A stretch of DNA of 64,000 nucleotides from Planctomycetota bacterium (GTDB lineage: Bacteria; Planctomycetota; UBA1135; UBA2386): NCBI GenBank assembly GCA_046290465.1, contig JBKAGP010000001.1, positions 4,288,001-4,352,000 on the forward strand, in the 5' to 3' direction. Positions 6,985 through 34,687 of the stretch are shown one piece after another. A program made the position numbers and the translations under genes. The notes below the pieces were generated by a model that ran no database searches, was not told the DNA's origin, and saw nothing but the letters and a program-made list of their open reading frames with translations. How positions within the stretch are numbered: position 1 is the first letter of the stretch; every line of letters starts with the position of its first letter.

Positions 6985-7012
6985 CTCCCGCTCACACCAC
7001 TCTCACAACGTC

Positions 7013-8953: not shown

Positions 8954-9051
8954 CGTCGCGTCGCGGCGGACCTGGCCGTCGACCTCGACTCCTGCCGGGT
9001 GATGCGGGCTGACGCTTGGCCGGCGGCCGGCGCGCGTCTACGTTTCGCTGG

Positions 9052-10053: not shown

Positions 10054-10081
10054 GGGTCCGGGCGCGTATGATGCGCGCGTT

Positions 10082-18289: not shown

Positions 18290-18293
18290 GACA

Positions 18294-19514
18294 TCACCCC
18301 TTCACGCACACGACCTGCTTGAGGGTGTGCACCACGTCGACCAGATCGCTCTGAGCCGCCATCACCGCGTCGATGTCCTTGTAGGCCATGGGCGTCTCGT
18401 CCAGGACCTTGCCATCCTTGCGGCATTCGACTCCTTCCGTCGCAGCGATGTGATCGTCGACGGTGAAGCGCCGGAACGCCTCGCCGCGCGACATCACGCG
18501 CCCCGCCCCGTGGCTGCACGAGTGGAAGCTCTCTGCGTTTCCCTTGCCTCGAACGATGTAGCTCTTCGCGCCCATCGAACCCGGGATGATGCCGAGCTCG
18601 CCGTCGCCGGCGCGCACCGCACCCTTGCGGGTCACGAACACCGACGAACCGAAGTGCTCCTCCTGCCGCACGTAGTTGTGGTGGCAGTTCACGGCGACCT
18701 CGCCGTGCGTGAACTTCGGCAGGTCGTCCCGCCGCGCCATCGCCTCGAGGATGTTCGCCATCATCAGGTCGCGGTTGGTGCGCGCGTAACGCTGCGCCCA
18801 GTCCACCGCGAACACGTAGTCGTCGAAGTGCTGCGCTCCCTCCGTGAAGTACGCCAGGTCCTTGTCCGGCAGGTTGTGGATGTGCTGCTCCATGTCCTTC
18901 TTGGCCAGGCCGATGAAGTGCATGCCGATGCGGTTGCCGACACCGCGCGAACCGCTGTGCAGCATCACCCAGACGCGCTGCGCCTCGTCGAGGCAGACCT
19001 CGACGAAGTGGTTGCCGCCGCCCAGCGTGCCGAGCTGGCTCACGGTCGCGCCGCGGTCCAGCTTGGGGTGCCGTTCGATGATGCGCTCGTAGCCCGGCCG
19101 CATGCGCTTCCAGGCGTCCTCGGTGCGCGCGGGCGGGTGGAACCACGCGCCGCGATCACCCTTGCCGCCGCGGTTGGTGCGGCCGTGCGGGACCGCGCGC
19201 TCGATGTCCGAACGCAGGCCCTTGAGGTTGTCGGGCAGGTCGCTCGCCGTCATCGACGTGCGCACCGCCATCATGCCGCAGCCGATGTCGACACCGACCG
19301 CCGCCGGGATGATCGCGCCCTTGGTCGGGATCACGCTGCCGACCGTGGCGCCGATGCCCCAGTGAACGTCCGGCATCGCGGCGACGTGGCCGTGCACGAT
19401 CGGCAGGCGGGCCACGTTCTGCAGCTGACGGATCGCGTTGTCGTCCGCGTGCACTCCGCGCACCCATGCCTTGATCGGCACGCCGCCGGTCTCGAACTGT
19501 TCGAAGGTCGTCAT
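18294..19514 (-). CDS. rtcB: RtcB RNA ligase
   Basis: MPDVH.G.GA.VG, VGVDIGCG, GTLGGGNHF.E, HSGSRG, HHN, IPGSMG, SCSHGAGR. Confidence 0.97.
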   Translation of the reverse strand: MTTFEQFETGGVPIKAWVRGVHADDNAIRQLQNVARLPIVHGHVAAMPDVHWGIGATVGSVIPTKGAIIPAAVGVDIGCGMMAVRTSMTASDLPDNLKGLRSDIERAVPHGRTNRGGKGDRGAWFHPPARTEDAWKRMRPGYERIIERHPKLDRGATVSQLGTLGGGNHFVEVCLDEAQRVWVMLHSGSRGVGNRIGMHFIGLAKKDMEQHIHNLPDKDLAYFTEGAQHFDDYVFAVDWAQRYARTNRDLMMANILEAMARRDDLPKFTHGEVAVNCHHNYVRQEEHFGSSVFVTRKGAVRAGDGELGIIPGSMGAKSYIVRGKGNAESFHSCSHGAGRVMSRGEAFRRFTVDDHIAATEGVECRKDGKVLDETPMAYKDIDAVMAAQSDLVDVVHTLKQVVCVKG

Positions 19515-19709
19515 CGTTCTTGGTCCTGATGCTGTTCTGGATCGTGACCGGTGGGCCGGTGCCCACCGGGTGCGAGGTCGGGGCCCCGCGACGCGAGCCG
19601 CCCGCAGACCCTGGTGGGATCCGCGAGCGACTCTCCGACGCGGCGTGGGCCGTGCACCGAGGGCGGCCTTGGATCGGCGACTCCGGTGCGGCGTCCGTGT
19701 GCCGCGACG
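19515..19709 (-). ncRNA. Structured 5' leader (or co-transcribed small RNA) of rtcBA
   Basis: Three hairpins on the transcribed strand: 19654-19689, a 17-bp stem at 19595-19633 with four G-U pairs, and a 9-bp stem at 19548-19569. Confidence 0.45.
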
Positions 19710-19719
19710 GAACGGCTAG

Positions 19720-19735
19720 AGCGAGCGGCGTGCCA
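19720..19735 (-). promoter_or_regulatory. sigma54 -24/-12 promoter of rtcBA
   Basis: TGGCACGCCGCTCGCT with exact GG-N10-GC spacing; rtcBA is sigma54/RtcR-dependent in E. coli. Confidence 0.8.
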
Positions 19736-19775
19736 GCGGCGTCCGGAGTCTAGCAGAATCCCGGAAGCCTCTGTA

Positions 19776-19788
19776 TAGCAATGAGTTG
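19776..19788. promoter_or_regulatory. IHF-like bending site
   Basis: TAGCAATGAGTTG, one mismatch to WATCAANNNNTTR, between the enhancer and the sigma54 site. Confidence 0.45.
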
Positions 19789-19834
19789 CGTGGAGTGAGG
19801 GTCGGCCGGGCCACTCGGCCGATCGATCGTGAGT

Positions 19835-19870
19835 TATCCGTTAGGATAGCGTGATATCCTTCCGGATATC
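19835..19870. promoter_or_regulatory. Twin palindromic upstream activator sequences, probable RtcR sites
   Basis: TATCC-GTTA-GGATA (19835-19848) and GATATCC-TTCC-GGATATC (19853-19870); centres 20 bp apart. Confidence 0.7.
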
Positions 19871-19893
19871 TCCTACGCCGACTCGCGCCGCCG

Positions 19894-20973
19894 CTACTCG
19901 CCGAGATACCGCCGCTGCACCGCCTGCCACTCGTCGCTGCGCAGCACCTCGAGCATCGCCTTGTTCAGCGGCTTGCGCAGGTCGCTGCCGCGCGGCATCG
20001 CGATCGCATACTGCTCCTCCCGCAGCTGCTGCGGCAGGACCAGCAGCTCGGGCTTGTCGAGCGTCAGGTACTTGAGGATCGGCGCGTCGTAGACGACCGC
20101 GTCGACCCGCCCCTGGTCGAGTGCCGCGACCGCCTCCTGCGGCGACGCGAACGGCGAGTAGCGCAGCCGTTGCTCGTCGAGCCACTCGGCCGCCGCCGAG
20201 CCGCCGAGCGTGCCGACCCGCACGTTCGGCAGGTCCTCGGGGCCGCGCACGACCGACTGCATGCGATCGAGGGTCAGCGCCGACGCGATCGCGGCGGTGT
20301 AGCTCGAGATGATCACGATGCTCGCAAACATCCAGACCAGCGCGATCGAGCGGCCGGCCGCGGTCACCGGCGCCTTGTCGCCGTAGCCGACGGTCGTCAT
20401 CGTCACCGCCGAGAACCAGAAGCCGGCGGCCGGCCCGCTGATGCCCTTGCCGCCGAACTGCTCGGGGTTGGCGCGCCGTTCGGCGAGCCACGTCAGCACG
20501 CCGCACACCGCCAGCACCAGCGCCAGCGCGCCGAGCGCCTGCAGCAGCTCGATCGAGAACAGCCGGTCGACCAGCGCGCCGAGCATGCCGCGGTCCTGGC
20601 CGCTGGTCGCGATGCCGAGCCCCGAGGTCAAGAACGGGTGCGAGAAGTCCATGCGGTCCTCACGTTCGGGCGTGATCGTCAGCGCCGCCAGCGCCAGGTC
20701 GACCTCGCCGTTCTCGGCGGCCGTCAGCATGCCGTTCAGGTCACGCTCGACGAACGTCGCGCGGCGGCCGAGTCGCTGCGCGACCATCTGCCACAGCTCG
20801 ATGCTCATGCCGGAGTAGCCGTCGATCGACGGGCCGCTGCCGCCGTCGGACTTCATGACGAACGGCGGCGTCAGCTTGGTGGCGATGGTCAGCGGTTCGG
20901 CTTCCTGGGCGCGCGCGTTCGCGGCGAGCGAAACGAGCAGCGCCAGCAGCCCCAGCAGGACTCTCGGGATCAT
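19894..20973 (-). CDS. GluR0-like ligand-gated K+ channel (split SBP_bac_3 domain around a 2-TM pore)
   Basis: PPFV, ITPERE..DFS.P (S1); TM; FWFS.VTMTTVGYGD filter; TM SSYTAAIAS; S2 lobe ending RYLG. Confidence 0.88.
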   Translation of the reverse strand: MIPRVLLGLLALLVSLAANARAQEAEPLTIATKLTPPFVMKSDGGSGPSIDGYSGMSIELWQMVAQRLGRRATFVERDLNGMLTAAENGEVDLALAALTITPEREDRMDFSHPFLTSGLGIATSGQDRGMLGALVDRLFSIELLQALGALALVLAVCGVLTWLAERRANPEQFGGKGISGPAAGFWFSAVTMTTVGYGDKAPVTAAGRSIALVWMFASIVIISSYTAAIASALTLDRMQSVVRGPEDLPNVRVGTLGGSAAAEWLDEQRLRYSPFASPQEAVAALDQGRVDAVVYDAPILKYLTLDKPELLVLPQQLREEQYAIAMPRGSDLRKPLNKAMLEVLRSDEWQAVQRRYLGE

Positions 20974-21230
20974 GCCCCGAGGCTACCGCGACCGCGTGCG
21001 CCCGGCCCCTGGTAGCCGAGGAACGTGCGCATCGAGTTCGACACGGTGGCGCCGGAGGCGTTGGCGCCCGGGTCCAGACACAGGGCCTGCACGTCCTCGT
21101 CGAGCGTCGCGGTCACGTTGGGTACGGTCCAGGTGATGGTGGCGCTGCCGCTCGCGAGCAGCATGACGCTCGGGATCGCCATCGACGTGGATCCGGGCAT
21201 GCCGATCGGGTCGAGCGGCACGGGGTTCCC
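20970..21230 (-). pseudogene. Remnant encoding only the last half of the shared C-terminal domain
   Basis: PLDPIGMPG...VPN...VQALCLDPGANASGATVSNSMRTFLGY; no signal peptide or passenger domain; abuts the island edge. Confidence 0.6.
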
Positions 21231-22003
21231 AGCGCTCGGCGAGAAGCCGAATCGCGGCGGCGGACGACCTGGGCTTCGGTCGGGCGGCGGCTCGTTCGTT
21301 CTGTGAGTCGAACTCGACGAGGTCGCGGGCGGCGGACGACGGATCGGGGGTACGTTCTCGAATGCACCGGCGAACGGACGCCGTCCTCTTCCGCAGATTG
21401 GTCGACACGCGTCCGCCTACGTTGCCTCCGCCGAGGGCCGATTCATCGTGAGGGCCGGGCACTTCCCGACGTTCGCGAAATCGTCCGTGCCTACGGTTGT
21501 CGGCTTCTTCGAAGCCGACGGCAGGTTTCGTTCGAGGCGAAGGTCATCGCGCAGCAAACTCCGTGCATCAATGTGCCGCTACCGGTCTTGCGTTGACGGC
21601 CGACCAGGATCGGTAGCGGATGTTGTCGCGGCTACCGCACGTGAGGGGCCGCGTTCGGGTGTGACCTGCCATGTGATTCGGGTGTATCGATACACGCTCG
21701 TCGCACGTGTCGATGGTTGACATCCTGCACGGCCATCACTATGCAAGACCAGACGTCGCCCGACCTGCCGGGTTCGTGAAGTGCCTCTCGGAAGAACGAA
21801 GCGTCGCCTCGCCAGGCGGCTTCGTCCATGTTGACGACGTTCGTTGATGGAGCAGTGGGACCTGGGTCCTCTGCATGGAATCGGGAAGGTTCTATGTATC
21901 GAACACTTGGTTCGTCGTCTCTGCGTGCGCGGTTGACGCGACACGATGCCGTGGCCCGTTCGGCAGCCGCCCCTGCCGGGTTGGCTCTTGCGGAGGTCGC
22001 GCG

Positions 22004-24487
22004 GTGAGCGAACCGTCGCGCAAGTCCAGCAGGAGCCGGTCGGGCTTCTCACCGATCGCGGCGTTGGCGGCGTTGCTGATCGGAGTCGTGGCATGTGTGT
22101 GGATCCTCGGCTCCACGGGCGTGGAGGCGCCTCGCGATCGCGACGAGATCGGTCGTAACCCGAAGCCGGTCGAGTCCGTGACTCCGGTGGCCTCGCCGCA
22201 TTCCGAAGCGCAGCGCACGGAGGTGCCGGTCGCCAGTCGCGTGGCCTCGTCGGCGCTCGCCGGTGTCGTGATCTTGCCGGACGGGTTGCCGGCGTCGGGC
22301 GTGCACCTGCAGTTGTCGGCGAGCGATGGGGAGACAGCGCTGGAGGCGGCACGATCCGATGCGGGCGGCCACTTCGCCTGGAGGAACATCCCCGCAGGCA
22401 TCTACCGGATTCGGGCGGAGCTGGATGACCACGTCGCGGAACAGACGGTGGCGGCTCCCGACGAAGGTCTGCTGCTGCAGTTGCGGCGACGACTCTCGCA
22501 CGAGAGTGACGATGTCGCGCTGCGGGTGCGCGTGCTCGATGAGTACGCGAAGCCGCTTCGGGAAGCCGAGGTCGTCGTCACGGGCGACCACGGACGGTGG
22601 CGTGGCGAGACCGCGGCTGACGGCATCTGTTCGTTCCCCGGCAAGCCGTGCTGGCACGCGATGGTCGTCGCCACGACTGGCGACGGACGTTCCGGTGCAG
22701 CGGTGCAATACCCTCGACGCGAACGGCCCGATCCGATGCTCGTCGAGGTCGTGGTGTCCGGCGAAGGATACCTGGTCGGCAGCTTGCGCGCGCCTGCGGG
22801 CGTGGAGCTGCCCAACTCGCTCCAGGTCGTCGCACACCTCGGAGCGGCTGCGACCCCGTTCGGGCGCAAGCACACGGTCGAGTTCGTCGCGCCGGTGCGC
22901 TCTGGCGAGTATCGGTTCGCCAGCCTGCCCGCCGCGACCTACGCGATCGAAGTGCGGGGTCTCGAAGTCGTAGACCTGCAGCTATGCACGCTCGGTGCGG
23001 ACGGGTTGCCCGTGCAGCGGCCGACCGATGGCTGGGTGCAGCCCGTCATGGCCTACGTGCAGGCCGGCAAGACCACGCGGTGTGACCTCCAGGCCGCGCC
23101 CGCGGCGAGCGTGGCCGGGCGCGTCCTGGACGAGGGCGGGCGGGGCATTCCCGGTGCCGTTGTGGAATGTCGCCGGTTGCTCCGCAACGGGCGGGCCGTC
23201 AACGAGGGGCAGGTCGCCGGAGCCCCTGTCGAGGTCGTCGAGGAGTCGGCACCGGCACCGGCACCGCTGCCGATCTATGCGCGAACGGTTCGCACGGACT
23301 CCGAAGGTCGCTACGTGCTGTCGGGCCTGGTTCCTGGTCCCTATCGACTGAAGGCATCGATGGACGGCTTCGCCGAGGTCGTCGACTCGTCCTTCGACCT
23401 CGTCGGAGGTCGTCGTGTGGAACGCAACTTCACGTTGACGAATGCGGGCCGGGTCGAGGTGGTCGTCGGGCACCCGGTCGTGGTTGTCGTGTTCAGCGAC
23501 GATCCCAGATGGTGTCGAGCCGCACGTACCGGGTCGAATGGACAGATCGTCTTCGATGGCGTACCCGTAGGCCGCCACTTTGTCGGCGTCATCGAGACCG
23601 GCGACTTTGCCCGCGCGCAGCTGACGGTGACGGATCCGCCCGATCCGCTGGCCAGTGTGCAGGTGAGCGCTGCCGAGTCCGCGTTCGTAGACCTTCGCGA
23701 ACAGTTGCCGGTCGTGCTCGATGCAGAGATCATCGGTAGCGACGGCCCGTGGTCTGGGGCGCGCGTCGATCTGTTGGGGCGCAGGACGGTTACGGATGGC
23801 GACGGCAGATTCACGCTCCGCTTCGGTTCGCCGATCCAGTCGGAAGAGTACCTTCGGGTCACGCGCGATGGCCTGACACTCGCGCTCGCGATGCCGGCGG
23901 CCAGTCGCGAGGTGCGAAGCTGGCGGGGTCGATTCGACATCGCGACGGAGTCGACGACGATCGTCGCCCGCTCCCATGATGGCAGGCCGGTCGTGGCCGA
24001 CATCCGACTGAGCGGCGGTGTTCGCGGCGCGCTGCGAACTTCACCCGCAGACGGTGCCCTGCATCGGCAGTTGCCGAAGCGAACGATGAGGATGGCCGCC
24101 ACGTTTCCGAGCGGCGCTGTCGTGCGCCGACCCATTCGTGCGGGAGAGACTGTCGAGGTCGTGGCACCCGAGGTGACGACGCTGCGTGCGCGGGTCGTCG
24201 ACGCTTCCAACCGGCCGCAGGAGCGATTCCAGGTGCAGGTGAGGGTCTGGGGCGACCCGGGGGAGCCGCCAGTGGACTGGCAGCCCTGGTCGGAGTCGCG
24301 ACCTTCCACGAAGGGCGGCCACGGCGTGACCGACGCATCCGGATGGGTCGAGTTGCGTGCGCTTCCGGCGGGTCCCGCCATGGTCTTCCTGGCGCCGCGG
24401 CTCGGGTTCACCGGCACCGCGCCGCCTGCGCGCGTTCGGCTCGAAGCGGGGAGACCCGCCGAAGTGGTGTTGAGGCTAGATCCATGA
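22004..24487 (+). CDS. Membrane-anchored multi carboxypeptidase-regulatory-like (Cna-B-type) domain protein
   Basis: GTG start after GGAGGT; N-terminal TM; repeats such as GRVLDEGGRGIPGAVV and TDSEGRYVLSGLVPGPYRL. Confidence 0.75.
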   Translation: MSEPSRKSSRSRSGFSPIAALAALLIGVVACVWILGSTGVEAPRDRDEIGRNPKPVESVTPVASPHSEAQRTEVPVASRVASSALAGVVILPDGLPASGVHLQLSASDGETALEAARSDAGGHFAWRNIPAGIYRIRAELDDHVAEQTVAAPDEGLLLQLRRRLSHESDDVALRVRVLDEYAKPLREAEVVVTGDHGRWRGETAADGICSFPGKPCWHAMVVATTGDGRSGAAVQYPRRERPDPMLVEVVVSGEGYLVGSLRAPAGVELPNSLQVVAHLGAAATPFGRKHTVEFVAPVRSGEYRFASLPAATYAIEVRGLEVVDLQLCTLGADGLPVQRPTDGWVQPVMAYVQAGKTTRCDLQAAPAASVAGRVLDEGGRGIPGAVVECRRLLRNGRAVNEGQVAGAPVEVVEESAPAPAPLPIYARTVRTDSEGRYVLSGLVPGPYRLKASMDGFAEVVDSSFDLVGGRRVERNFTLTNAGRVEVVVGHPVVVVVFSDDPRWCRAARTGSNGQIVFDGVPVGRHFVGVIETGDFARAQLTVTDPPDPLASVQVSAAESAFVDLREQLPVVLDAEIIGSDGPWSGARVDLLGRRTVTDGDGRFTLRFGSPIQSEEYLRVTRDGLTLALAMPAASREVRSWRGRFDIATESTTIVARSHDGRPVVADIRLSGGVRGALRTSPADGALHRQLPKRTMRMAATFPSGAVVRRPIRAGETVEVVAPEVTTLRARVVDASNRPQERFQVQVRVWGDPGEPPVDWQPWSESRPSTKGGHGVTDASGWVELRALPAGPAMVFLAPRLGFTGTAPPARVRLEAGRPAEVVLRLDP

Positions 24488-26184
24488 AGGACACGAACCG
24501 TGGTTGGTTGGCCAACAGGCCCGGAACCTGGATGGCGCTGCTCGCGACCGCAATCGTCGCATGGTCGACGATTCTGGTGGCCGTGCTGATGGCGCCGTCG
24601 CCCTCGCGGGAGGATCGCGAGCGGGACGTGCTGGCGATGCACGAATTGGCGAGGCGGCTCTCGGATTCCGCGTACACCGCCGACCCAGGACTGCGGATTG
24701 AAGGGCGACTGATGACCCCCTCGCCCTCGGTTCGGGTCATCGCCGTCGAGAGCCGACTGCTGGCGTCGGTGCTCGCGAGTGCGCAGCGGGCGCCGCAGGA
24801 GAGTCTGCCGTTCCCGCTGCCGATCGCCGCAGAGACGCGAACCAGGCGCGACGGGAGCTTCCTGCTCGAGGGAGTGCAGCTGGGGCGGTATGCGACCTTC
24901 GTGTCTGCTCCGGGATACCGCCCGGTTCGTCGTGACGGCATCATCGTTCGCGACAGCATCGGAGCCCGAACCAGGCTGACGCTGCGACCGGAGTCGGGCT
25001 GTTCGGGGACCCTGCCGCAAGGCGTCCCCGATGGAGCTTCGTTCGTGCCCCTCTATGCGGGTCACTGGCCGGACCTCGCCTGGCATGATGCGAAGGCCGG
25101 GGTCGTGCGGCTGGAGCGTCGGGATCCGGACGGCTGGCCGCTGGCGCTCGCGTGGAAGCATGGAGAGCGCTTCGGCTGGTGCCGAGTCGAAGTCGACGAG
25201 GCCGGCAGTGCGACCATCCGGGAAACGCAGCTGGCCGATCTGGTCAGCAGCGCTCCGCTCGGTCCGGCTGCGATCGCGGAGTCACCCCTGGCCGCCCTTC
25301 GAGCTCATACCGACTACATGCCGGTCGATGCCAGCGATGCACCAGGTGGCCGGCAGCAACCCGGGCCATCTCGCCTGCGCGTGCGGTCGCGCGAGCCGTT
25401 TGCGCACTACGAGATCACCCTCGACAGCGGCGCGGTTTTTGCGGTGTTCGCTGACGTCTCAGGGACCGGCGAGTTCTATGGGCCGACCGGCGCTGCCCTG
25501 GTGCGTGCCGTCGTGCACGGAGGCAGGCGGACACGTCCGACCGGCGCCTTCCTCCAGCCGGGTGCAGAGGTCTCGATCTACTTGCCGTTTCGTGACGTGC
25601 TGGAGCAGCGGGTGCCAGATGTGGCGCCACGCGTCGAGTTGCCGGGGCGAAACGGGCTGTACGGCTTCTTGCGTAACCTGCAGGGTGAGCCGGTCGTCGG
25701 TGCGACGATCGCCGTGTTCGGCGGCGATCCCGATCGGTCGCGTCCGTTCTACGGAGCGACCGACGAGCACGGGTTCTATCGCATCGACAGCGTGCCGGCG
25801 GCAAGGCGCTACACGATGCGGTACGGGCGGTCGGCTGGGTTCGGCGATTCGTTGCTGCAGCATGTCGCCGAACTCACCGGGGTGGTCGACCAAGGGCCCG
25901 TGCATGAGCGCGTAGATCTGCAGCTCACGGGTACGAGATGCGAGGTAGCCGTGCCCGATGGGCAGCTCGGAGACCTGATCCTGGTGCACGCGGAAGGCCG
26001 CGAGGCGCCGATCGCTCGGGTCTACGTCAAGTCTGCAGGCGAGTCCGTCGTGCTCCGGGATCTCCCGGTCGCTTCGTACCGCCTGACTCTCGAACGTGAG
26101 GCCGTTCCGGTCGCCGAGTCCGGCTTGCAGCCGGCCGGTGACGGCAGCGGGCTCTCGTTGTCCGGTGAATGGCGTTCGAGGTGA
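24484..26184 (+). CDS. Membrane-anchored carboxypeptidase-regulatory-like domain protein
   Basis: ATGA overlap with upstream stop; N-terminal TM; TRRDGSFLLEGVQLGRY, GEPVVGATI, TDEHGFYRIDSVP. Confidence 0.72.
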   Translation: MKDTNRGWLANRPGTWMALLATAIVAWSTILVAVLMAPSPSREDRERDVLAMHELARRLSDSAYTADPGLRIEGRLMTPSPSVRVIAVESRLLASVLASAQRAPQESLPFPLPIAAETRTRRDGSFLLEGVQLGRYATFVSAPGYRPVRRDGIIVRDSIGARTRLTLRPESGCSGTLPQGVPDGASFVPLYAGHWPDLAWHDAKAGVVRLERRDPDGWPLALAWKHGERFGWCRVEVDEAGSATIRETQLADLVSSAPLGPAAIAESPLAALRAHTDYMPVDASDAPGGRQQPGPSRLRVRSREPFAHYEITLDSGAVFAVFADVSGTGEFYGPTGAALVRAVVHGGRRTRPTGAFLQPGAEVSIYLPFRDVLEQRVPDVAPRVELPGRNGLYGFLRNLQGEPVVGATIAVFGGDPDRSRPFYGATDEHGFYRIDSVPAARRYTMRYGRSAGFGDSLLQHVAELTGVVDQGPVHERVDLQLTGTRCEVAVPDGQLGDLILVHAEGREAPIARVYVKSAGESVVLRDLPVASYRLTLEREAVPVAESGLQPAGDGSGLSLSGEWRSR

Positions 26185-26234
26185 ACGTCTGCCGGTTCGT
26201 GTTCCTCTGAGGTCCAAGACCTAGGAGTCAGACA

Positions 26235-27215
26235 ATGAAGTCCCTAGCAATGCTCTCATTCGGCTCGCTAGTCGGCCTGGCGTTTACGCCTGCGTTCGAC
26301 GAAGTGGGTGTGAGTGTGCCGATCGGCGGCACCGAGAGTTCGATCCTGTGCTCGGCGCAGACCAACTACCAGATGGAGTACCTCGGCGATTCGCGCGCCG
26401 AGGAGGTGGCCGACTACGTCGGTCTCGTCGAGTTCGCGGTTTCTGCCCGGTTCCAGGATCCAGACCCGATTCCCGTTCCGGTTCCGCCGCGCAGCACGCT
26501 GCCGAGCCAGCAGACCGACCCGATCTGCAGCTCGGGTACCGGCGGGCCCAACAACCGTTGCTCGACGGATGCCAACCAGAACAAGTGCAGCGCCAACGGC
26601 AACGAAGACGACGGGTCCGGTCACAACTGCTCTGCCGGCGACATCGGCGGCAACGGCGAGTGCAGCACGAACAGCGGGGACTGGAACACCCGCTGCTCGG
26701 TCCACGGTGGTGAGGACAACCACTGCAGTGCCATCGAGCTGCCGGGCAACCCCGGTACCGCCAAGTGCTCGGCCATCGAGAAGGGATTCTGCTCGGTATT
26801 CGGCGGCGGTGGTGACCCTGGTGGCAACGGTGGCGGTGGCGCTGGCGGCAGAGACAACTCCTGCTCGGCCTTCGGTCTGGCGGGGGAAAACCCACAGAAC
26901 CCGAAGTGCTCGGCGTTCGCGAACCTGGGCTTCCCGCTCTGCTCGGTGCTGAAGCACCAGGCCAACGCGACCTGCACGGTCGTCGACTCGGACAACTACG
27001 GCCCCGGCGCGGGAACCTGCTCGACCATGAACCTGCAGGGCCAGCCGGTCGGTCCGCCGCCGAACTTCTGCAGCGTGGTCACCATCCCCGCGGGCGGTGG
27101 TCCTCCGACGGTGGACCCGCCGCAAGGCAACCCGCCGCGTTGCACGACCTCGATCCCGGAGCAGGGCGGCGAAGAGCCGGTCGAGCCGGGTCAGCCGGTC
27201 ATCAACGGCAACTGA
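26235..27215 (+). CDS. Putative exported Cys-Ser repeat protein
   Basis: AGGAG RBS; hydrophobic N-terminus; 17 Cys, all in C-[ST]-[ASTV] motifs with G/N/D/P-rich spacers. Confidence 0.8.
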   Translation: MKSLAMLSFGSLVGLAFTPAFDEVGVSVPIGGTESSILCSAQTNYQMEYLGDSRAEEVADYVGLVEFAVSARFQDPDPIPVPVPPRSTLPSQQTDPICSSGTGGPNNRCSTDANQNKCSANGNEDDGSGHNCSAGDIGGNGECSTNSGDWNTRCSVHGGEDNHCSAIELPGNPGTAKCSAIEKGFCSVFGGGGDPGGNGGGGAGGRDNSCSAFGLAGENPQNPKCSAFANLGFPLCSVLKHQANATCTVVDSDNYGPGAGTCSTMNLQGQPVGPPPNFCSVVTIPAGGGPPTVDPPQGNPPRCTTSIPEQGGEEPVEPGQPVINGN

Positions 27216-27305
27216 GCCGACCCCCTGCCCCGACCCTGCCGGTGCCCAGTGCACCGGCTCGGCCGGGGCTCCCTTGCAGCAATCGAGCAGCGGAGAGTCA
27301 ACCCA

Positions 27306-29687
27306 GTGGAACCGTACTCAAGTCCCATCGAGTCGTCGTCGGCAGGTGGCCGGACCGTGACGACCTGGCGGCACGTGATCGCCGCCCTCGGATACCTGTC
27401 CGTTTTGATCGGTGCGCGCACCGTCCCCACCGGCATCAACGATGTGCATTGCATCGTGACAGCCGCGGTCCTCGTCGCCGGCGCCGCGACGAGCGCGTGG
27501 CTCGGGCGACCGATGCTCGCCCTGATCGGTCTGCTGGCATCGTTGGGGATCATTGCGGTCGACAATCTCGCCAGCGCACTCGCGGTCGGGATGGCGTTCT
27601 GGCTGTGGTTCCGTCGCTTTTGGGCCGGGGCCCCCATGTTGGCGGCGTTCGCGACACTGCTGTGGCTGCGTGAGGTAACGCGCTGGCCAGACGTATTGCT
27701 CGGATGGATATGCAAGCCGATCGAACTGGTGCCGGCGGTCGCAGAGGCCTCCTTGAACCCGACCGCGATCGGTGCATGGCCGATCCTCGGCGCGGTCCTG
27801 CTCGCCTCGGTGCGATCCGATCAGCGGGTTCGTAGGCGATGGCCGCTGATGGCTCTGGTGGTGATGGGCGCTGGCTACGCGGTCTGGCGTGCGACGACCG
27901 TCGACCAGGTCGCGGCCGGTGAGGATGCCATCGAGATGTTCGCGCCCCTGTGGTGGTTGGCGATCGGGTTGTCGGTGCCGGTCTCGCTTTCCGCTGGAGC
28001 ACCGTCGGGCGTGACCACGGCTCACTCGCCTGTCTGGCGTCCGTTGTCCGTGGCCGCGGGTCTCGCGTTCTTGCCGCTGCTCTCGTGGCTGTTGCCGGCG
28101 TCGTCGACCGCGCCTCGTGTCGTGTTCCTCAATGAAGGGGGACTCGATTGGCACTTGCCCAGTCGGGGTGCCCGGGTAGGGGTGGAGTTCGGCATGTTCG
28201 GCGGGCTGCCCTACTACCTCGAAGAGGATGGCATGTCGGTGGCGGCGGTTTCGTTCGACGAGCTGATGGACAAGGGCCTCGACGAATGCGACGTGCTGGT
28301 CACGATCAACAACCCGAGAGTCTGGGCCGACGACGAGGTGCAGCGCGTCGACGGATTCCTCCGAAGAGGTGGTTCGCTACTCGTGCTCGGAGACCACACC
28401 GATGTGTTTGGTTGCAAGAAGGGCTTCGACTCCCTGCTCACGCCGTACGGAATCGGTTTTCGATTCGACTCCGCCTACTTCGTGCGCAACTCGTGGACGG
28501 GGGCTGCCTACGAGACCGTCAATCCGGCGTTCGCACGGGGTCAGGGGCCGTTGGTGCTCGGTCATGGCATCGGGGCATCGCTGGCGATCGACGCGGGCGT
28601 CGAGAATCTGATCGTGGCTCGATACGGCTTCAGCGACACAGGCGTCCGCGCGAACGAGATGGGCGCCTACCTCGGCAACTACCACTACCAGGTTGGCGAA
28701 TTGGCAGGAGACCTGTCGCTGGTTGCCTGGAAGGCAGTGGGCCGGGGACGCATCGTCGCATACGGCGATACCAGTGCCTTTCAAAGCGGCGGCTTGCCGC
28801 ACACGTATCGGCCGCACGTCTTGCCGTTGATGCAGTGGCTCGGAACGCGCGCGGGTATCGCGGAACAGTCGTGGTATCGCCTGCTGATCAGCATCGTCGC
28901 GATCTTGTCCGTGCTCGGAGTGCTGCGTGGGCAGAAGCTGCCGGCCTTGTTGATCGGTAGTGCGGCGCTCGGGTCGGTTCTGGCCGGAGCCCTCGCGCAT
29001 CGGATCGATCCTGCTGATGCCGTGCTCTCGGATCGGATCCTGATCGATGATTCGCTGGATCCCTGGACCGGACACTACGACGCCCAGATGAACTCGACTG
29101 GGCCGCTCTATACGAACATGTCGCGATCGGGTCTGAAGGGCATCGCGGGGGATCAGAGCGTCGATCTCGACCAGGATCCCCGCGGTGTCGTGATGATCGC
29201 GCCGACCCGGCGCATCGGCGACCATGAGGCGTTGCGGCTCCTCGAATACGTATCGAATGGAGGTTCGCTGCTGGTCGCGGCCGGGCTCGAGTCGCGCACG
29301 GCACTCCTGCCACTGTTGACATCGCTCGGCCTCGACATCGGCAGCACACCTCTCGGAACGGTACCCGGCTCCGGCGCGTCCGTCGTCGAGCAACTGGAAC
29401 CGAGGACCCGCAACGCCTGGCCGTTGTACGTCGACGCACGTGCGAGTGGCATCGTACGCGAGCTGTTCCGGTTCGGGCCTCACGTCTTGGCGTTGTCGAT
29501 GCAGATCGGATCGGGACGCCTGGTCTGGATCGGCGATGGCCAGTTCTTCAGCGGGCGCAACGTCGAGACCTCGCGTCACGTGTGGCCCGGCAATGTCCGC
29601 TTCATCGAGAACGTGTTCGCGCTCGCGTTCGGCAGTGATGCCGGCGACGTGCCCGAGCGGTTCCCTTCGCCGGAGAAGCCCCAATGA
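27306..29687 (+). CDS. Multi-pass membrane protein with two DUF4350/GldG-like (GATase-like fold) domains
   Basis: N-terminal TM bundle; GGSLLVLGDHTD, GRGRIVAYGDTS; TM pair; second domain GGSLLVAAG..GSGRLVWIGD; start uncertain. Confidence 0.65.
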   Translation: MEPYSSPIESSSAGGRTVTTWRHVIAALGYLSVLIGARTVPTGINDVHCIVTAAVLVAGAATSAWLGRPMLALIGLLASLGIIAVDNLASALAVGMAFWLWFRRFWAGAPMLAAFATLLWLREVTRWPDVLLGWICKPIELVPAVAEASLNPTAIGAWPILGAVLLASVRSDQRVRRRWPLMALVVMGAGYAVWRATTVDQVAAGEDAIEMFAPLWWLAIGLSVPVSLSAGAPSGVTTAHSPVWRPLSVAAGLAFLPLLSWLLPASSTAPRVVFLNEGGLDWHLPSRGARVGVEFGMFGGLPYYLEEDGMSVAAVSFDELMDKGLDECDVLVTINNPRVWADDEVQRVDGFLRRGGSLLVLGDHTDVFGCKKGFDSLLTPYGIGFRFDSAYFVRNSWTGAAYETVNPAFARGQGPLVLGHGIGASLAIDAGVENLIVARYGFSDTGVRANEMGAYLGNYHYQVGELAGDLSLVAWKAVGRGRIVAYGDTSAFQSGGLPHTYRPHVLPLMQWLGTRAGIAEQSWYRLLISIVAILSVLGVLRGQKLPALLIGSAALGSVLAGALAHRIDPADAVLSDRILIDDSLDPWTGHYDAQMNSTGPLYTNMSRSGLKGIAGDQSVDLDQDPRGVVMIAPTRRIGDHEALRLLEYVSNGGSLLVAAGLESRTALLPLLTSLGLDIGSTPLGTVPGSGASVVEQLEPRTRNAWPLYVDARASGIVRELFRFGPHVLALSMQIGSGRLVWIGDGQFFSGRNVETSRHVWPGNVRFIENVFALAFGSDAGDVPERFPSPEKPQ

Positions 29688-32065
29688 TCCGTTCTTCGCT
29701 GCACGTCATCGGCCTGCTCAGCGCGGTGCTGTTCGCACACGGCCTGATCGCTTGGACCTCTCCGTTTGCGGAGACGTGGACCGTACTGCTGTTGGGAGCG
29801 GCTGGCGTCGCCTTTTCCGCGTCGTCTCAGCTCGACCGTTGTCCTGGACGACGACTGACCTCCGGAGTGCGGGGTGTTGCGGTCTTCGTGGTCGCCGCGA
29901 TGGCCGCGGCGCTCGCGATCTGGACCTGCGAACAGCTCGCCCTCCGGCAGGTCGCGTTCCCGACGATCGGATCTCTCATCGGAACCCTGATGCAGCCGTT
30001 CGGCAGGTTCGGCGCCAGCGCACTCGGAGAGATCTCCAGCCAGGCGCGAGACGGGCGGTTGCTGTTCGAGGTCAGCACCGTCAAGCTCGGGGTCGGGCTG
30101 ATCGGCTACCTGGCCGCGCACGCGGCAGCCACGCTGGCCTTCGGGTCGCTGACCGTGCGCCGAACGCTGTACGGGGTGCTCGGCATGTGTGCAGTGTTGG
30201 TCGTGCATCTGGCCGTGGAGATCGCTCTCTACGGCGACATCAGCAAGGTGCTCCTGCAGCACTTCCCGAGTCATCTGACGCGCTTCAGCGACGTAGTCCG
30301 GCAGATTCCGTGGATGCTGGTTGCCGGCATCACGTTGATAGCGAGCGGATGGAGAGTGGATCCGCCGCCGGCCATCGATGTAGCAGCGGCATCGACGATC
30401 GGTCTGCGTGAACGGATCCTGTGTTCGGTGACCGTAGTGCTGGGAGCGCTGGTGGCACTCTGTGCACTCGATCTGAGGTTGCCCGATCGCGAGGGCAAGG
30501 GCGTCGTCGTCGTCGACGACCTCCACTCCGAGTACTGGGCCGCAGCCGGTCGCAGGATGAACGAGGATTGGTACGGAGACTTCTCGACCTACAACCTGTC
30601 AGCCATGTCCGAGTATCTCGGACACTACTACCCGGTACGCGTGAACCGATCACAGCGCTATCGGCCGGGCAGCCTCGACGATGCCAGTGTGCTGGTGTTG
30701 AAGACTCCGACGCTGGACTTCGAACCCGAGGAGGTCGAGACCATCCTCGCGTTCGTCCGCGGCGGTGGCGGGTTGGTGCTGATCGGCGACCACACCAACC
30801 TGATGGGTACGAGTTCTCGTCTCAACCAGTTTGCGGTGCATGCCGGAATGGCGTTCGTGTTCGATGGAGTGAGCAATGGCCACAGCGGGTCGTTCTCCTT
30901 CGCCCCACCGCCGACGACGTCGCATGCGATCCGCGGGCGCGATACAGCCGGTTCCGAGTTCTTGACCGGTTGTTCTCTGCGGTTGGCGCCAGGCGTCGAT
31001 CCGTTGCTGGTCGCGCCTCGCGAGACACGCGTACGCGGGGACTACGCGAACGGCAGCTTCTTCGGGACGCTCTACAACGACCCCCGGTCGGACATCGCAC
31101 CGGTTGCCCACGGGGCGGCCGGGACGATCGGCGACGGTACGGTCTTCGCCTACTCCGACAGTACGTGTCTGTCGTCGTTCGGCATCTTCCAATACGGGCG
31201 AATCGAGGCGATGGTCAGGGCGATCGACTTCTGCGCCCGCGGCGGCAAGAGCGGCGCCAGCATGCGCTGGTTGGGGTTCGCGAGCGGATCCCTGGTATGC
31301 CTGATCGGACTGATGTTGCTGCGGCGATGGACATCGACGACCTGGCTGCTGGCGGTACTCGTATCGGTCGGTCTGTCGCCGGTGGCCGCCCGCCACCTGG
31401 TCGAGGGATTGCACGAGCGCGCCTGGCCGGATCCTCAGCCGGTCGTGGAACTGCCTCACGTCGACTACATCAGCCGCAATACCAACAGCCTGCTGCCGCC
31501 GGTCCTGGGCTCGTCCAGGGAAGAGTGGTTGCCGCGTGCCTACGACACGCTCTACGCCGCGATTCCGAGGACTGGTCGCTTCCCGAACATCGCTGGCAGC
31601 TTGTCGACCTGGACCGGGGAGCATCCCGCGATGTTCCTCGACCCTGTGACGCCGGTGGCCGAATGGGTCCAGCAGAGGACCCTCGCGACCCTGCGGCGTG
31701 GCGGTCGGATGCTCGTCGGCGTGTCTTCCGCGAGCCTCGGCTTCGACACGACTCGGTCCCTGCTCGCGGGCACCTCGCTCGGAATCGAGTACCAAAACGA
31801 GGAAGCGAACCAGGTGCGCTTCACGAAGGGGCCCGGTGACCACTACGAACTCCTGGCCGGGGGCAAGATCCAGGTCTACGAGACAGCCGTCGGTGAGGGA
31901 CGGTTGATCCTCGTCATCGGCATCGAGAATTGGGCACGGTCGGTGCTCGGTCACGCGTTCTCGATCCCGGATGCGGATGCGGCAGAACTCTACGCATCGC
32001 TGTTCCGGGTCCTGAGTCGGTTGGGTCCGGACGTCATCGATCGCAGGACCTATCTGATCGACTAG
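29684..32065 (+). CDS. Multi-pass membrane protein with DUF4350/GldG-like domains, paralog of upstream gene
   Basis: ATGA overlap; TM bundle; VDDLHSE, VLVLKTP, GGGLVLIGDHTN, GDGTVFAYSDST; TM pair; GEGRLILV. Confidence 0.65.
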   Translation: MIRSSLHVIGLLSAVLFAHGLIAWTSPFAETWTVLLLGAAGVAFSASSQLDRCPGRRLTSGVRGVAVFVVAAMAAALAIWTCEQLALRQVAFPTIGSLIGTLMQPFGRFGASALGEISSQARDGRLLFEVSTVKLGVGLIGYLAAHAAATLAFGSLTVRRTLYGVLGMCAVLVVHLAVEIALYGDISKVLLQHFPSHLTRFSDVVRQIPWMLVAGITLIASGWRVDPPPAIDVAAASTIGLRERILCSVTVVLGALVALCALDLRLPDREGKGVVVVDDLHSEYWAAAGRRMNEDWYGDFSTYNLSAMSEYLGHYYPVRVNRSQRYRPGSLDDASVLVLKTPTLDFEPEEVETILAFVRGGGGLVLIGDHTNLMGTSSRLNQFAVHAGMAFVFDGVSNGHSGSFSFAPPPTTSHAIRGRDTAGSEFLTGCSLRLAPGVDPLLVAPRETRVRGDYANGSFFGTLYNDPRSDIAPVAHGAAGTIGDGTVFAYSDSTCLSSFGIFQYGRIEAMVRAIDFCARGGKSGASMRWLGFASGSLVCLIGLMLLRRWTSTTWLLAVLVSVGLSPVAARHLVEGLHERAWPDPQPVVELPHVDYISRNTNSLLPPVLGSSREEWLPRAYDTLYAAIPRTGRFPNIAGSLSTWTGEHPAMFLDPVTPVAEWVQQRTLATLRRGGRMLVGVSSASLGFDTTRSLLAGTSLGIEYQNEEANQVRFTKGPGDHYELLAGGKIQVYETAVGEGRLILVIGIENWARSVLGHAFSIPDADAAELYASLFRVLSRLGPDVIDRRTYLID

Positions 32066-32067
32066 TG

Positions 32068-32090
32068 GGGCCGCCAGGAGTTGGCGGCCC
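32068..32090. terminator. GC-rich hairpin after the island operon
   Basis: GGGCCGCCA-GGAGT-TGGCGGCCC, starting 3 nt after the stop; no U-tract. Confidence 0.5.
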
Positions 32091-32136
32091 AGGTCGTCGG
32101 CCCGCAAGGCCGCTGGCGGCGTTGTTGCTCCTCGAC

Positions 32137-32154
32137 AGGATGTTGCAACATCCT
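32137..32154. repeat. Perfect 18-bp palindrome
   Basis: AGGATGTTGCAACATCCT. Confidence 0.85.
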
Positions 32155-32216
32155 TCGTCACCGCGCCGGGCTGCCCACTCATGGCGGACCCAGCCAACTC
32201 GCAAACGTCCGTTGAG

Positions 32217-33020
32217 TCAGTCCACCAGGTCGGGGAACATTCGACGCACGCGGGCTTCGTGTTCGCGGTCGTCGCCGGCCTTGCCGGCGAGCAGCGTCAG
32301 CAGCGAGTGCAGATCGCGGCCGGTGACCCGGTAGGTCGTCTCGGCCTTCTCCTCGAGGCGCTTGCTGAGACGCCGGTGCGCGGCCTTGGGCGTCAGCACG
32401 TAGCGCGGTTCCCTGCTCTCGGGCGCCTCGAGTTCGCGCAGCGCCGCGTCGGCGACCTCGCGCTCCTTGCCGGGCGGTGCGTCGAGCACGCGGCGGCAGA
32501 TCTGGCGCGCCTTGCTCCACGACAGCTTGTCCTGCTGGAGCAGTTCGCGCACGCGGCGGTCCATGCCGGGCACGTAGCGCAGGATGTCCTGCACCCACGA
32601 TTCGCTCTTGTCGAGGAAGGCGGCGATCCGCGCCGCCGACCAGTTGGCGTTGTTGAGAAACAGGATCGTGTCGAAGTAGTCGTGGATCCTGGCGTCGAGG
32701 CGGTCGGCGTTGAGCTTGAGGTTGAGCGCGCGGATCTCCTCGACGTCGCCGGCGACGCAGCGGATGTCGACGCGGTCGTAGTAGCCGGGGTTGTCGCCGC
32801 GGATCCGACGGATCGCTTCGAGGCGGTGGAAGCCGCCGACCAGGAAGTACTCGCGCGCGCGCCGTTCCCAGACCACCAGCGGCTCGAGCAGACCGTTCTG
32901 CAGGATGTCGTCCTGATAGTGGCGGACCTTGCTCTCGCTCAGCTCGCGGTGGTTGGGCACCAGCGGGTGCACCTGGATCTGCTCGATCGGGACGTAGTCG
33001 TAGCGCTTGGTGGTGACCAT
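32217..33020 (-). CDS. ParB/Srx N-terminal-domain protein (stand-alone)
   Basis: DILQNGLLEPLVV..YFLVGGFHRLEA motif and HTH-like IAAFLDKSESWV. Confidence 0.8.
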   Translation of the reverse strand: MVTTKRYDYVPIEQIQVHPLVPNHRELSESKVRHYQDDILQNGLLEPLVVWERRAREYFLVGGFHRLEAIRRIRGDNPGYYDRVDIRCVAGDVEEIRALNLKLNADRLDARIHDYFDTILFLNNANWSAARIAAFLDKSESWVQDILRYVPGMDRRVRELLQQDKLSWSKARQICRRVLDAPPGKEREVADAALRELEAPESREPRYVLTPKAAHRRLSKRLEEKAETTYRVTGRDLHSLLTLLAGKAGDDREHEARVRRMFPDLVD

Positions 33021-33058
33021 GGCGGGGGGGATGGCGTGCAGGCTACCATCCGGGCCGC

Positions 33059-34687
33059 GTGGAGACAGCGAAGGGCCACACCGTCATCAGCTTCCTCGGC
33101 ACGCAGCTCGACCGGGGTGGCCGCCACGACCGCTGGGACAGCTGGCGGCCGAACGTCGCGATGTGCATGCACGAGGACCTGCTGGTCGAACGGCTGGTGG
33201 TCCTGACCGAGCGCCGGTTCGGCAAGCTCTACAACGTCGTCGCGAAGGACATCGCGCTGGTGTCGCCGGGCACCCGGGTCGAGCAGCGCACGGTCTCGCT
33301 GCGCGACCCGTGGGACTTCGAGGAGGTCTTCGACGTGCTGCTGTCGGTGGCCGAGGAGCTCGAGCTCGACCCGGAGGCCGAGGACGTGCTGGTGCACATG
33401 ACGACCGGCACGCACGTCGCGCAGATCTGCCTGTTCCTGCTGACGGAGACGCGGCACTTCCCGGCGCGGTTGCTGCAGACCGGGCCGCCGTCGGCGAGGG
33501 ACGGCGGGCGAAGCAGCAAGGTCGGCAGCTGGCAGATCATCGACCTCGACCTGTCGCGATTCGACCGGCTGGCGCAGCGCTTCGCGCAGGAACACCAGCA
33601 GGGCGAGTCGCTGCTCAAGTCCGGCATCCAGACGCGCAACCGTTCGTTCAACGAACTGATCACGCAGGTCGAACGGGTGGCGCCGTTGTCGACCGCGCCG
33701 ATGCTGCTGATGGGGCCGACCGGCGCCGGCAAGTCGCAGCTCGCCAAGCAGATCTACGAGCTCAAGAAGCAGCGCCACCAGCTGCAGGGCACGTTCGTCG
33801 AGGTCAACTGCGCGACGATCCGCGGCGACGGGGCCCATTCGACGCTGTTCGGTCACAAGAAGGGTTCGTTCACCGGCGCCACCGGTGACCGTGCCGGGCT
33901 GCTGCGCGCGGCGGATGGCGGCCTGCTGTTCCTCGACGAGATCGGCGAGCTCGGCCTCGATGAGCAGGCGATGCTGTTGCGCGCGCTCGAGGACAAGCGC
34001 TTCCTGCCGCTCGGCAGCGACAAGGAGGCCGAGAGCGACTTCCAGTTGATCGCCGGGACCAACCGCGACCTCGGCCGCGCGGTGCACGAAGGAACGTTCC
34101 GCGAGGACCTGCTGGCGCGCATCAACCTGTGGACCTATCGGCTGCCGGGGCTGCGCGACCGCATCGAGGACCTCGAGCCCAACGTCGACTACGAGCTCGA
34201 GCGCTACTCCGCGCGCGTCGGCCGGCGCGTGCACTTCGCGGCCGAGGCGCGTCGTCGCTACCTCGAGTTCGCGACGTCGGCGGGCGGCCATTGGTGCGGC
34301 AACTTCCGCGACCTCAACGCGAGCATGACGCGGCTGTGCACGCTCGCACACGGCGGCCGCATCACCGACGAGGAGGTGCGCGGCGAGATCGCGCGGCTCG
34401 AGGCCGACTGGCAGCGCGGCGGCGACGAAGCGGCGGGTCGTGGGCAGGCCGACGACGCGCTGTTGGCCGAACTGCTCGGCGAGCAGGGGCTCTCAGAGCT
34501 CGATCGCTTCGACCGCGTGCAGCTGGCCGAGGTGGTGCGGGTCTGTCGGCGCCATCGCACGATGTCGGCGGCGGGGCGTGAGCTGTTCGCGGCGTCGCGG
34601 GCGCGCAAGGCCTCGAGCAACGACACCGACCGGCTGCGCAAGTACCTGGCGCGGTTCGGCCTCGAGTTCTCGTCGATGCACGGGTGA
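33059..34687 (+). CDS. rtcR: RNA repair transcriptional activator RtcR (CARF-like + sigma54 AAA+ + HTH)
   Basis: FLGTQLD..RW..WRP, DPWDFEEV, TTGTHVAQIC, GPTGAGKS, GSFTGA, FLDEIGEL, NDTDRLRKYLARFGL. Confidence 0.95.
   Translation: METAKGHTVISFLGTQLDRGGRHDRWDSWRPNVAMCMHEDLLVERLVVLTERRFGKLYNVVAKDIALVSPGTRVEQRTVSLRDPWDFEEVFDVLLSVAEELELDPEAEDVLVHMTTGTHVAQICLFLLTETRHFPARLLQTGPPSARDGGRSSKVGSWQIIDLDLSRFDRLAQRFAQEHQQGESLLKSGIQTRNRSFNELITQVERVAPLSTAPMLLMGPTGAGKSQLAKQIYELKKQRHQLQGTFVEVNCATIRGDGAHSTLFGHKKGSFTGATGDRAGLLRAADGGLLFLDEIGELGLDEQAMLLRALEDKRFLPLGSDKEAESDFQLIAGTNRDLGRAVHEGTFREDLLARINLWTYRLPGLRDRIEDLEPNVDYELERYSARVGRRVHFAAEARRRYLEFATSAGGHWCGNFRDLNASMTRLCTLAHGGRITDEEVRGEIARLEADWQRGGDEAAGRGQADDALLAELLGEQGLSELDRFDRVQLAEVVRVCRRHRTMSAAGRELFAASRARKASSNDTDRLRKYLARFGLEFSSMHG

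Follow-up and report, generated by a model that had tools for sequence, protein, structure and literature searches.

The window analysed here is a stretch of 64,000 nucleotides from a Planctomycetota bacterium (assembly GCA_046290465.1, contig JBKAGP010000001.1, positions 4,288,001 to 4,352,000 of the forward strand). It contains five open reading frames (ORFs), designated A to E, which were confirmed as genes on the sequence, together with their common orientation on the plus strand, the ATGA overlaps that couple A to B and D to E, and the ribosome-binding site (RBS) of C, all reported in the initial annotation (Table 1). Gene C encodes a Cys-Ser/Thr repeat protein, and D and E a pair of related membrane proteins. 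A C-type repeat protein, D and E form the conserved core of a three-gene system that is widespread and unnamed, and whose mechanism, as proposed below, is deduced from sequence rather than demonstrated.

The C protein has no match in Pfam or NCBIfam, and the protein atlas gave no usable one. Each of its 17 Cys directly precedes Ser or Thr, in agreement with the C[ST]-repeat protein first described, and 16 of them, each with its Ser/Thr, are kept in all four homologues (53-59% identity). The family also has a conserved N-terminal part of its own. The 16 C-[ST] units of the core lie 8-24 residues apart, and Ser91, upstream of the core, is invariant. In a structure model of C, which is of low confidence (predicted local distance difference test, pLDDT, 32), short strands coincide with the C-[ST] units. 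C is presumed to be an exported precursor, with a signal-like N-terminus, a leader up to about residue 90, the core and a short follower, the hydrophobic N-terminus having been judged by eye and lying below the hydropathy cut-off used for other helices. The SPL[YF] leader of many related proteins (see below) seemed by eye to be present in C as ESSIL...EYLG, but the profile did not bear this out.

A and B had been described as membrane-anchored Cna-B/carboxypeptidase-regulatory-like proteins. Indeed, both match CarboxypepD_reg (Pfam PF13620; 1e-37 for A and 5e-14 for B) and have one N-terminal hydrophobic helix each. A is a multi-domain, Cna-B-like protein of a domain family with 148 domain matches across the genome; it is a generic N-terminally anchored protein, possibly accessory to the system. 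A profile built from four locus proteins scores B at 83 bits. It matches in nine of the 11 loci with loosely spaced CS repeats (four of the nine being the training set), with a best score of 39 bits in a locus of another type; the orthologues of B are confined to this subfamily.

Relatives of D, clustered at 50%, number 1,713 at E values up to 0.001, the weak matches among which may be other GIFT proteins (see below), and 540 at E values up to 1e-30. Within the same genus, the gene was present in none of 14 genomes; it occurred in five of 60 relatives and, among the 401 genomes of a phylum sample that included its own, in 26. The protein atlas clusters nearest to D point to a planctomycete as the probable host. 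There was no match in plasmids, and a single-protein search of genome contigs returned only two weak, unrelated-looking loci. In total, 107 loci were examined, of which 96 are non-redundant, and 49 of the latter extend at least 4 kb upstream. A repeat ORF, defined by at least eight Cys with Ser/Thr at a fixed offset, lies near the pair in 32 of these 49 loci, and a repeat ORF or an ORF with an SPL[YF] leader in 38. The same filter, run over the whole 6.6-Mb genome, returned C plus ten shadow-frame matches. At least 1.5 kb lies downstream of D in 78 loci, redundant ones counted, and in 77 of these D is followed by an E-type gene. The expectation that homologues with the GDHT motif of D and E would recurrently lie beside Cys-repeat ORFs agrees with these counts; the idea that the five genes form a general unit does not, since A- and B-like genes are missing from most loci of the pair.

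The system seems to occur in both bacteria and archaea, i.e., in planctomycetes, other bacteria and Thermoplasmatota-type genomes, the last label being based on the nearest protein atlas clusters and on inspection by eye. The repeats are of several types: loosely spaced CS (as in the window), CS 7-mers, S-x-C 5-mers, T-x-C-P 7-mers, TC and C[ST] 6-mers, whilst archaeal-type loci show either short tails of Thr/Cys or hydrophobic ones with 2-4 Cys. Many precursors have a signal-like N-terminus and an SPL[YF] leader, the latter found in 31 neighbours from bacterial and archaeal-type loci, and four end in a hydrophobic anchor with basic residues, a fifth candidate having been set aside as an artefact of the core. 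A quick tree of the first soluble domain of D groups loci by repeat type (eight changes, against a mean of 37 after shuffling), which shows clustering and not co-evolution, as related loci share labels. In seven archaeal-type loci (L077, L079, L081, L091, L094, L100 and L103), E is followed by one to three paralogous SPLF-leader proteins of 215-230 amino acids that end in P-x-G-L-S-T-S...G-C, a hydrophobic stretch and a T-x-x-T-C-L-N...C tail. L020 contains, on the minus strand (7639-10360), a very long array of T-x-C-P 7-mers that is split between two frames and joined to a C-terminal region resembling a beta-propeller; in the first unit of the array, Thr is kept and Arg stands instead of Cys.

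In six non-redundant loci, and not in the window, the array forms the C-terminal segment, after DPxG, of an RHS/YD-type protein (Table 1); RHS families were confirmed by a family scan for L037. Unlike in other RHS/YD-repeat polymorphic proteins, the cargo is no known toxin domain but a Cys/Ser array like that of the free precursors, with the same WNP-S-x-S-x-x-S-G-C start. Two further RHS-type proteins upstream of the pair (L106, 8387-14668; L107, 5345-11281) have few C-terminal Cys and are possible few-ring targets. No description of the system was found in the literature, subscription journals being mostly outside coverage. Pfam, NCBIfam and the protein atlas offer domain names only, and none of 19 cluster members among those listed carries a name.

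Table 1. Features of the cassette in the window and of RHS/YD-type proteins at other loci
Locus	Feature	Position	Strand	Remarks
Window	A	22004-24487	+	frame open from 21875; GGAGG ahead of GTG start at 22004
Window	B	24484-26184	+	ATGA overlap with A
Window	RBS of C, AGGAG	26223-26227	+	7 nt ahead of C
Window	C	26235-27215	+	Cys-Ser repeat ORF
Window	Core of C	26526-27146	+	residues 98-304, 16 C-[ST] units
Window	RNA hairpin between C and D	27227-27269	+	z -2.72; 2 of 200 shuffles equally good
Window	D	27357-29687	+	frame open from 27249
Window	E	29684-32065	+	ATGA overlap with D
Window	Hairpin after E	32068-32090	+	9-bp GC-rich stem, without U tract, z -1.84
Window	Block holding the cassette, between rtcB and rtcR	19515-33058		13.5 kb
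L036	RHS/YD-type protein	3398-8296		Cys/Ser array of 30-39 units; directly upstream of pair
L037	RHS/YD-type protein	2353-6819		Cys/Ser array of 30-39 units; directly upstream of pair
L044	RHS/YD-type protein	4321-8730		Cys/Ser array of 30-39 units; directly upstream of pair
L045	RHS/YD-type protein	3717-8813		Cys/Ser array of 30-39 units; directly upstream of pair
L056	RHS/YD-type protein	4697-8689		Cys/Ser array of 30-39 units; directly upstream of pair
L105	RHS/YD-type protein	3240-11102		Cys/Ser array of 30-39 units; directly upstream of pair

Register of cysteines and hydroxyl residues

Fifty-one precursors were curated, and 41 of them, having at least eight Cys and at least 80% Ser/Thr at one offset, entered a test of the array ends; the ten left out are mostly short archaeal ones. 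In these 41 proteins, 955 of 984 internal Cys have Ser/Thr at a family-specific offset (+1, -1 or -2). The first Cys has it in 34 of the 41, the last in only three. In 14 of 22 periodic arrays (those left after dropping three more with an earlier Cys), a spare Ser/Thr precedes the first Cys by exactly one period, and in 21 of them it lies within one residue of that position, against a background of 14%. Neither this spare residue nor the contrast between first and last Cys formed part of the precursor selection. Arrays open with a hydroxyl residue that has no Cys and close with a Cys that has no hydroxyl residue. Because the last Cys lacks Ser/Thr and a spare one is found upstream of the first, n Cys can be matched to n Ser/Thr only if Ser/Thr(k) pairs with Cys(k+1). 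Lanthionines usually link Ser/Thr to a downstream Cys in this way.

The rule holds over at least five unrelated spacings, and the hydroxyl residue is hardly ever replaced: at the rule position, Ala is found in three and Val in none of 982 cases, whereas these residues make up 13% and 8%, respectively, elsewhere in the cores. The number of Cys is even in 28 of 51 proteins and in 20 of 36 loci, i.e., it is odd about as often as even. The mean lag-2 autocorrelation of the spacings is 0.06 in 17 arrays, which indicates no average two-unit rhythm; two RHS-type arrays do show one.

Beta-solenoids with disulfides, such as those of the beetle antifreeze type, have paired Cys in even numbers, and disulfides form in the periplasm. 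In the main rival to the thioether chemistry favoured below, D and E would form a machine dedicated to folding such Cys-laddered solenoids or shuffling their disulfides, and Ser/Thr would be structural and form an inner hydrogen-bond ladder or an outer binding face. The C protein of the window fits both explanations, with 16 Cys conserved in it and in all four homologues and with the short strands in its model. Across the precursors, however, the random parity of Cys in proteins and loci, the lack of an average two-unit rhythm, the two RHS-type arrays excepted, and the near-absence of Ala and Val in place of Ser/Thr all argue against disulfides, and the asymmetry of the array ends would need a separate explanation. 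On balance, we consider this alternative unlikely, but worth serious attention.

Membrane pair D and E

The initial annotation presented D and E as two paralogous polytopic membrane proteins with a common GG.L...GDHT motif. Both carry the motif, and they are paralogues, as judged from 24% identity over 384 amino acids and a profile-profile match of their first soluble domains (GIFT1) with a probability of 100. The term polytopic is less apt, since the proteins consist mostly of soluble GIFT domains on a membrane anchor. D matches DUF4350 (PF14258) with 48.1 bits (cut-off 30.4) and E with 26.6 bits, and NCBIfam gave no match for either. The model of D (pLDDT 86; predicted template modelling score 0.91) comprises about ten N-terminal helices, an alpha/beta domain (residues 252-500), a two-helix hairpin and a second alpha/beta domain (residues 556-765); E has the same layout, as read from its profile matches to D. 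In fold, the model comes closest to the GIFT domains of IFT52 (Z 20.4; root-mean-square deviation 2.7 over 206), OST48 (Z 17.7) and site-1 protease (Z 17.1), followed by glutamine amidotransferase (GATase)-like domains and, weakly, homoserine O-acetyltransferase (Z 10.3); the search hardly probed the membrane part.

Profile and fold together place the pair in the GIFT/DUF4350 family with its class I GATase-like fold, and both soluble domains resemble in fold those of IFT52, OST48/WBP1, site-1 protease, GldG and arCOG01314. Archaeal DUF4350 proteins are membrane-anchored, extracellular, GldG-like and possibly heteromeric and have one C-terminal helix, as described in PMC5898192. Unlike the rest of the family, D and E have two GIFT domains on a multi-helix membrane domain, form a paralogue pair and carry an invariant polar set. 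Unlike in GldAFG-type ABC accessory systems, the five genes include no linked ABC ATPase or permease.

Conservation in both proteins is concentrated in GIFT1, and invariant polar residues are absent from GIFT2. All 123 D sequences have residues D347, H348, D372, D428, E449, D472 and T473 (numbered from 27354). The corresponding set of E, among 58 sequences, consists of Y303, H370 and T494 (58 each), K340 and D492 (57 each), D394 (56) and C430 (55). Most invariant residues in the D model come after core beta strands of GIFT1; GDHT is located between strand 341-345 and helix 351-365, and GDTS after the last core strand. Active sites of GATase-fold enzymes sit after core strands, and we infer that the invariant residues of D and E may be catalytic. 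The class I GATase signature, an elbow Cys with His-x-Glu, was not found at the sites equated by position, without residue-level superposition.

The loop ahead of the helix into GIFT1 contains on average 4.1 (D) and 3.3 (E) Lys/Arg residues, and the hairpin loop 1.6 (D) and 2.6 (E) with few acidic ones, compared with 1.0-1.8 on the sides of the GIFT domains. The positive-inside rule would turn both of these domains outwards, with a small margin at the hairpin of D. This topology and the recurrent neighbourhood support the earlier suggestion of an undescribed system in which the Cys-Ser protein is the extracytoplasmic target of a membrane pair. The membrane domain of E contains a G-loop-strand segment that looks similar to that of exosortases and archaeosortases, with EKLG where exosortase has ACSG. 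However, an exosortase origin is not supported: the profile match is negligible (hhalign against 12 exosortases gave a probability of 0.5% for D and, over 37 columns, of 5.7% for E), there was no exosortase match in Pfam or NCBIfam (PF09721), Lys takes the Cys-like place, and neither protein has the catalytic Cys.

The fold in common with OST48 of oligosaccharyltransferase and, weakly, with homoserine O-acetyltransferase, the large N-terminal membrane domain and the acidic invariant set of D would suit a two-subunit transferase that takes a sugar, lipid, phosphoglycerol or acyl group from a donor in the membrane, attaches it to Ser/Thr (or Cys) and makes no cross-link. The strict requirement for a hydroxyl group is consistent with such decoration as well, but the one-to-one match with Cys and the register shift would be left unexplained, the likeness of the membrane domain to exosortase is not supported, and no glycosyltransferase family recurs among the neighbours, which makes this alternative improbable. 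Very unlikely is a role in metal binding, with Cys thiolates as ligands, Ser/Thr as second ligands and D and E loading or exporting the metal. The Cys density is high, and the invariant His, Asp and Cys of D and E could bind metal, but spacings of 4-24 residues and the position as C-terminal RHS cargo are hard to fit to one metal site, and no metal-transport family is recurrent nearby.

From 179 neighbouring ORFs picked, 94 were scanned together with two others, and these 96 proteins gave no match to radical SAM, YcaO, LanC or glycosyltransferase families. All-against-all clustering of the neighbours likewise revealed no recurrent radical SAM/YcaO/LanC, glycosyltransferase or metal-transport family. 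Six of the 107 loci contain ABC ATPase-like ORFs; in one such case, the ORF lies on the opposite strand at a distance of 4 kb from E. L024 has a Ser/Thr kinase-like gene 4 kb upstream. In seven loci (L037, L044, L045, L056, L060, L061 and L071), a TlpA-like redoxin and/or a CcmH-like small gene directly follows E. Such neighbours, and Cys430 of E, conserved in 55 of 58 sequences, which would form mixed disulfides, are points for disulfide folding; the absence of a conserved CxxC in D or E is a point against it.

A Cys-Ser/Thr link of another kind might be made in trans in the cytoplasm, either a radical SAM C-S bond to the alpha or beta carbon, of the sacti- or ranthipeptide type, or azolines, with D and E exporting, anchoring or trimming the product. 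It would give the same register, and two S-x-C precursors score weakly on the model for CefA (NF038108; 26.9 and 19.1 bits for two of 18 precursors, below the cut-off of 30). CefA is a peptide that is synthesized by the ribosome and modified after translation (RiPP), with Cys every fifth residue, a spacing shared by one subfamily here, and its partner is a radical SAM enzyme. In contrast, radical SAM was not among the 96 neighbours scanned, nor were YcaO and LanC, radical SAM genes elsewhere in the genome not having been surveyed, and C itself is irregularly spaced and does not match. YcaO had no match in this genome and matched in one of five cassette-bearing genomes, the controls matching, and Sec-type N-termini would be ill-suited to prior cyclisation. 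We regard a link made in trans as improbable.

The inserted block and flanking genes

The block that holds the cassette separates genes that we take to be rtcA-rtcB (17270-19514) and a divergent rtcR (33059-34687). In the five relatives with both genes on one contig, the rtcB-rtcR gap measures 0.6-2.6 kb, compared with 13.5 kb here, and none of the intervening window DNA matched in those gaps. The block is an insertion that is largely absent at this site in the relatives, and the regulation of the RNA-repair operon may be altered by the separation. The distinct codon use noted earlier was borne out: the G+C content at third codon positions (GC3) is 0.78-0.84 in the cassette vs. 0.93-0.96 in six flanking genes, which puts the cassette at the 12th-20th percentile of 3,006 long ORFs. 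The tetranucleotide distance over 21-33 kb is at the 83rd-94th percentile. In both respects, the block looks foreign.

The hairpin between C and D is stronger (z -2.7) than that after E (z -1.8) and may set the ratio of precursor to enzyme message. As to the terminal hairpin reported initially, the 9-bp stem exists, but it has no U tract, and a terminator scan of the window did not call it; it is a possible terminator facing a convergent parB-like gene. The latter (32217-33020, minus strand) encodes a protein with a ParB-like N-terminal part and a helix-turn-helix, both weak matches, and has no second copy in the genome; it does not occur in the rtcB-rtcR gaps of the five relatives. Near the left edge, an 83-codon remnant (20970-21221, minus strand) with 40-43% identity to the C-terminal domain of two other proteins of the genome is probably a truncated gene. 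Also inside the block, 19894-20973 (minus strand) encodes a solute-binding protein of family 3 with an ion-channel segment, similar to prokaryotic glutamate receptors. Beyond it, 35128-37005 encodes a protein in which, as judged by eye, an N-terminal domain of carbohydrate-binding-like type is joined to a membrane domain resembling DoxX. The region is also present in contigs of other sequencing runs.

A possible thioether chemistry outside the cytoplasm

D and E are candidate enzymes because they are the only constant partners of the repeat proteins, and a link from Ser/Thr to the next Cys accounts together for the need for a hydroxyl group, the register and the random parity of Cys. Tentatively, and at just short of an even chance in our estimate, we propose that D and E together make chained Ser/Thr-to-next-Cys thioethers, i.e., (methyl)lanthionines, outside the cytoplasm. 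C would be exported and held by its N-terminus on the outer side of the membrane. There, D and E would act as a membrane-bound enzyme pair with active sites in their first GIFT domains, taking water from each Ser/Thr and adding the thiol of the next Cys to give a chain of rings. In C, this would yield 15 rings of 8-24 residues plus one between Ser91, the candidate first ring partner, and Cys98, and in other subfamilies interlocked rings of 8 or 10 residues. The product would be a protease- and redox-proof exported or surface polypeptide. More speculatively, the acidic D could be a metal-dependent hydroxyl-activating subunit and E, with its Lys, His, Cys and Tyr, the eliminating or ring-closing one. 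The hydroxyl group might be activated by direct metal-assisted dehydration or by group transfer from a membrane donor followed by elimination, with energy coming from such a membrane-borne donor rather than ATP. B might serve as a subfamily-specific chaperone or scaffold.

Known lanthipeptide classes use LanB/LanC, LanM, LanKC, LanL or LanK/LanY. As in classes I-V, the system has a presumed leader and a Cys/Ser/Thr core with predicted thioethers from Ser/Thr to downstream Cys, and the precursor gene is followed by a hairpin and then by the enzyme genes. Unlike those classes, the cassette has no LanC, kinase, LanB or LanM domain, its enzymes are predicted to lie outside the cytoplasm on a GIFT fold, and its precursors, with 8-62 Cys, start with signal-like N-termini and include large proteins, RHS cargo and proteins with a C-terminal anchor. 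LanC (PF05147) had no match in this single-contig genome nor in three of five cassette-bearing genomes, the other two matching. Searches for LanB/LanM dehydratases found none in the five genomes, but gave no match in any control either. A LanC-like gene in G033 (L159, 9507-12798) was rejected as part of the system, as it lies 14-16 kb from the pair, in a separate kinase-cyclase cluster that has a small Cys/Thr-rich precursor of its own. The first impression was that the cassette fits no RiPP template, but the leader, the Cys/Ser/Thr core and the register shift point back to RiPP logic with a new kind of enzyme. A new class of extracytoplasmic, ATP-free lanthionine synthetases, built as a GIFT-fold membrane heterodimer with exported, surface-anchored or RHS-cargo substrates of up to ~60 rings, is possible, although we hold this wider claim with somewhat more reserve.

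Several points weigh against thioether formation. The lanthionine synthetases known so far work in the cytoplasm and depend on ATP or glutamyl-tRNA, and no donor was identified here; moreover, the GIFT domains of IFT52, OST48 and site-1 protease, the closest folds, are regarded as non-catalytic. Eleven of the 49 loci have neither a repeat ORF nor an SPL[YF] ORF, and in two loci (L108, 8107-9129; L109, 8111-9034) an SPLY-leader TPR protein with four Cys and no repeat is encoded directly before D. C and its homologues score no better than 300 shuffles on the SPL[YF] leader profile. All five members of the C family have 16 conserved Cys, an even number, and the last Cys keeps its Thr in all five, which fits eight disulfides equally well. 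As the precursors were chosen for Ser/Thr near Cys, the 97% figure for internal Cys is partly circular, and the relatedness by descent of precursors and loci means that P values are overstated. Finally, the redoxin and CcmH-like neighbours of E in seven loci, which would suit keeping thiols free, also fit disulfide isomerisation.

If thioether formation is true, the GIFT domain known from IFT52 and OST48 would gain its first catalytic role, and lanthionine would be put in once the protein has been exported, with a fold and a source of energy that differ from those of every known class. It would add a post-translational chemistry to the cell envelope, account for many Cys-rich exported proteins that lack annotation and provide an enzyme with which multiply cyclised proteins that withstand reduction could be produced in the periplasm. 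Under the rival explanations too, D and E would belong to a three-gene system that is widespread and unnamed and has a GIFT domain of enzyme-like character.

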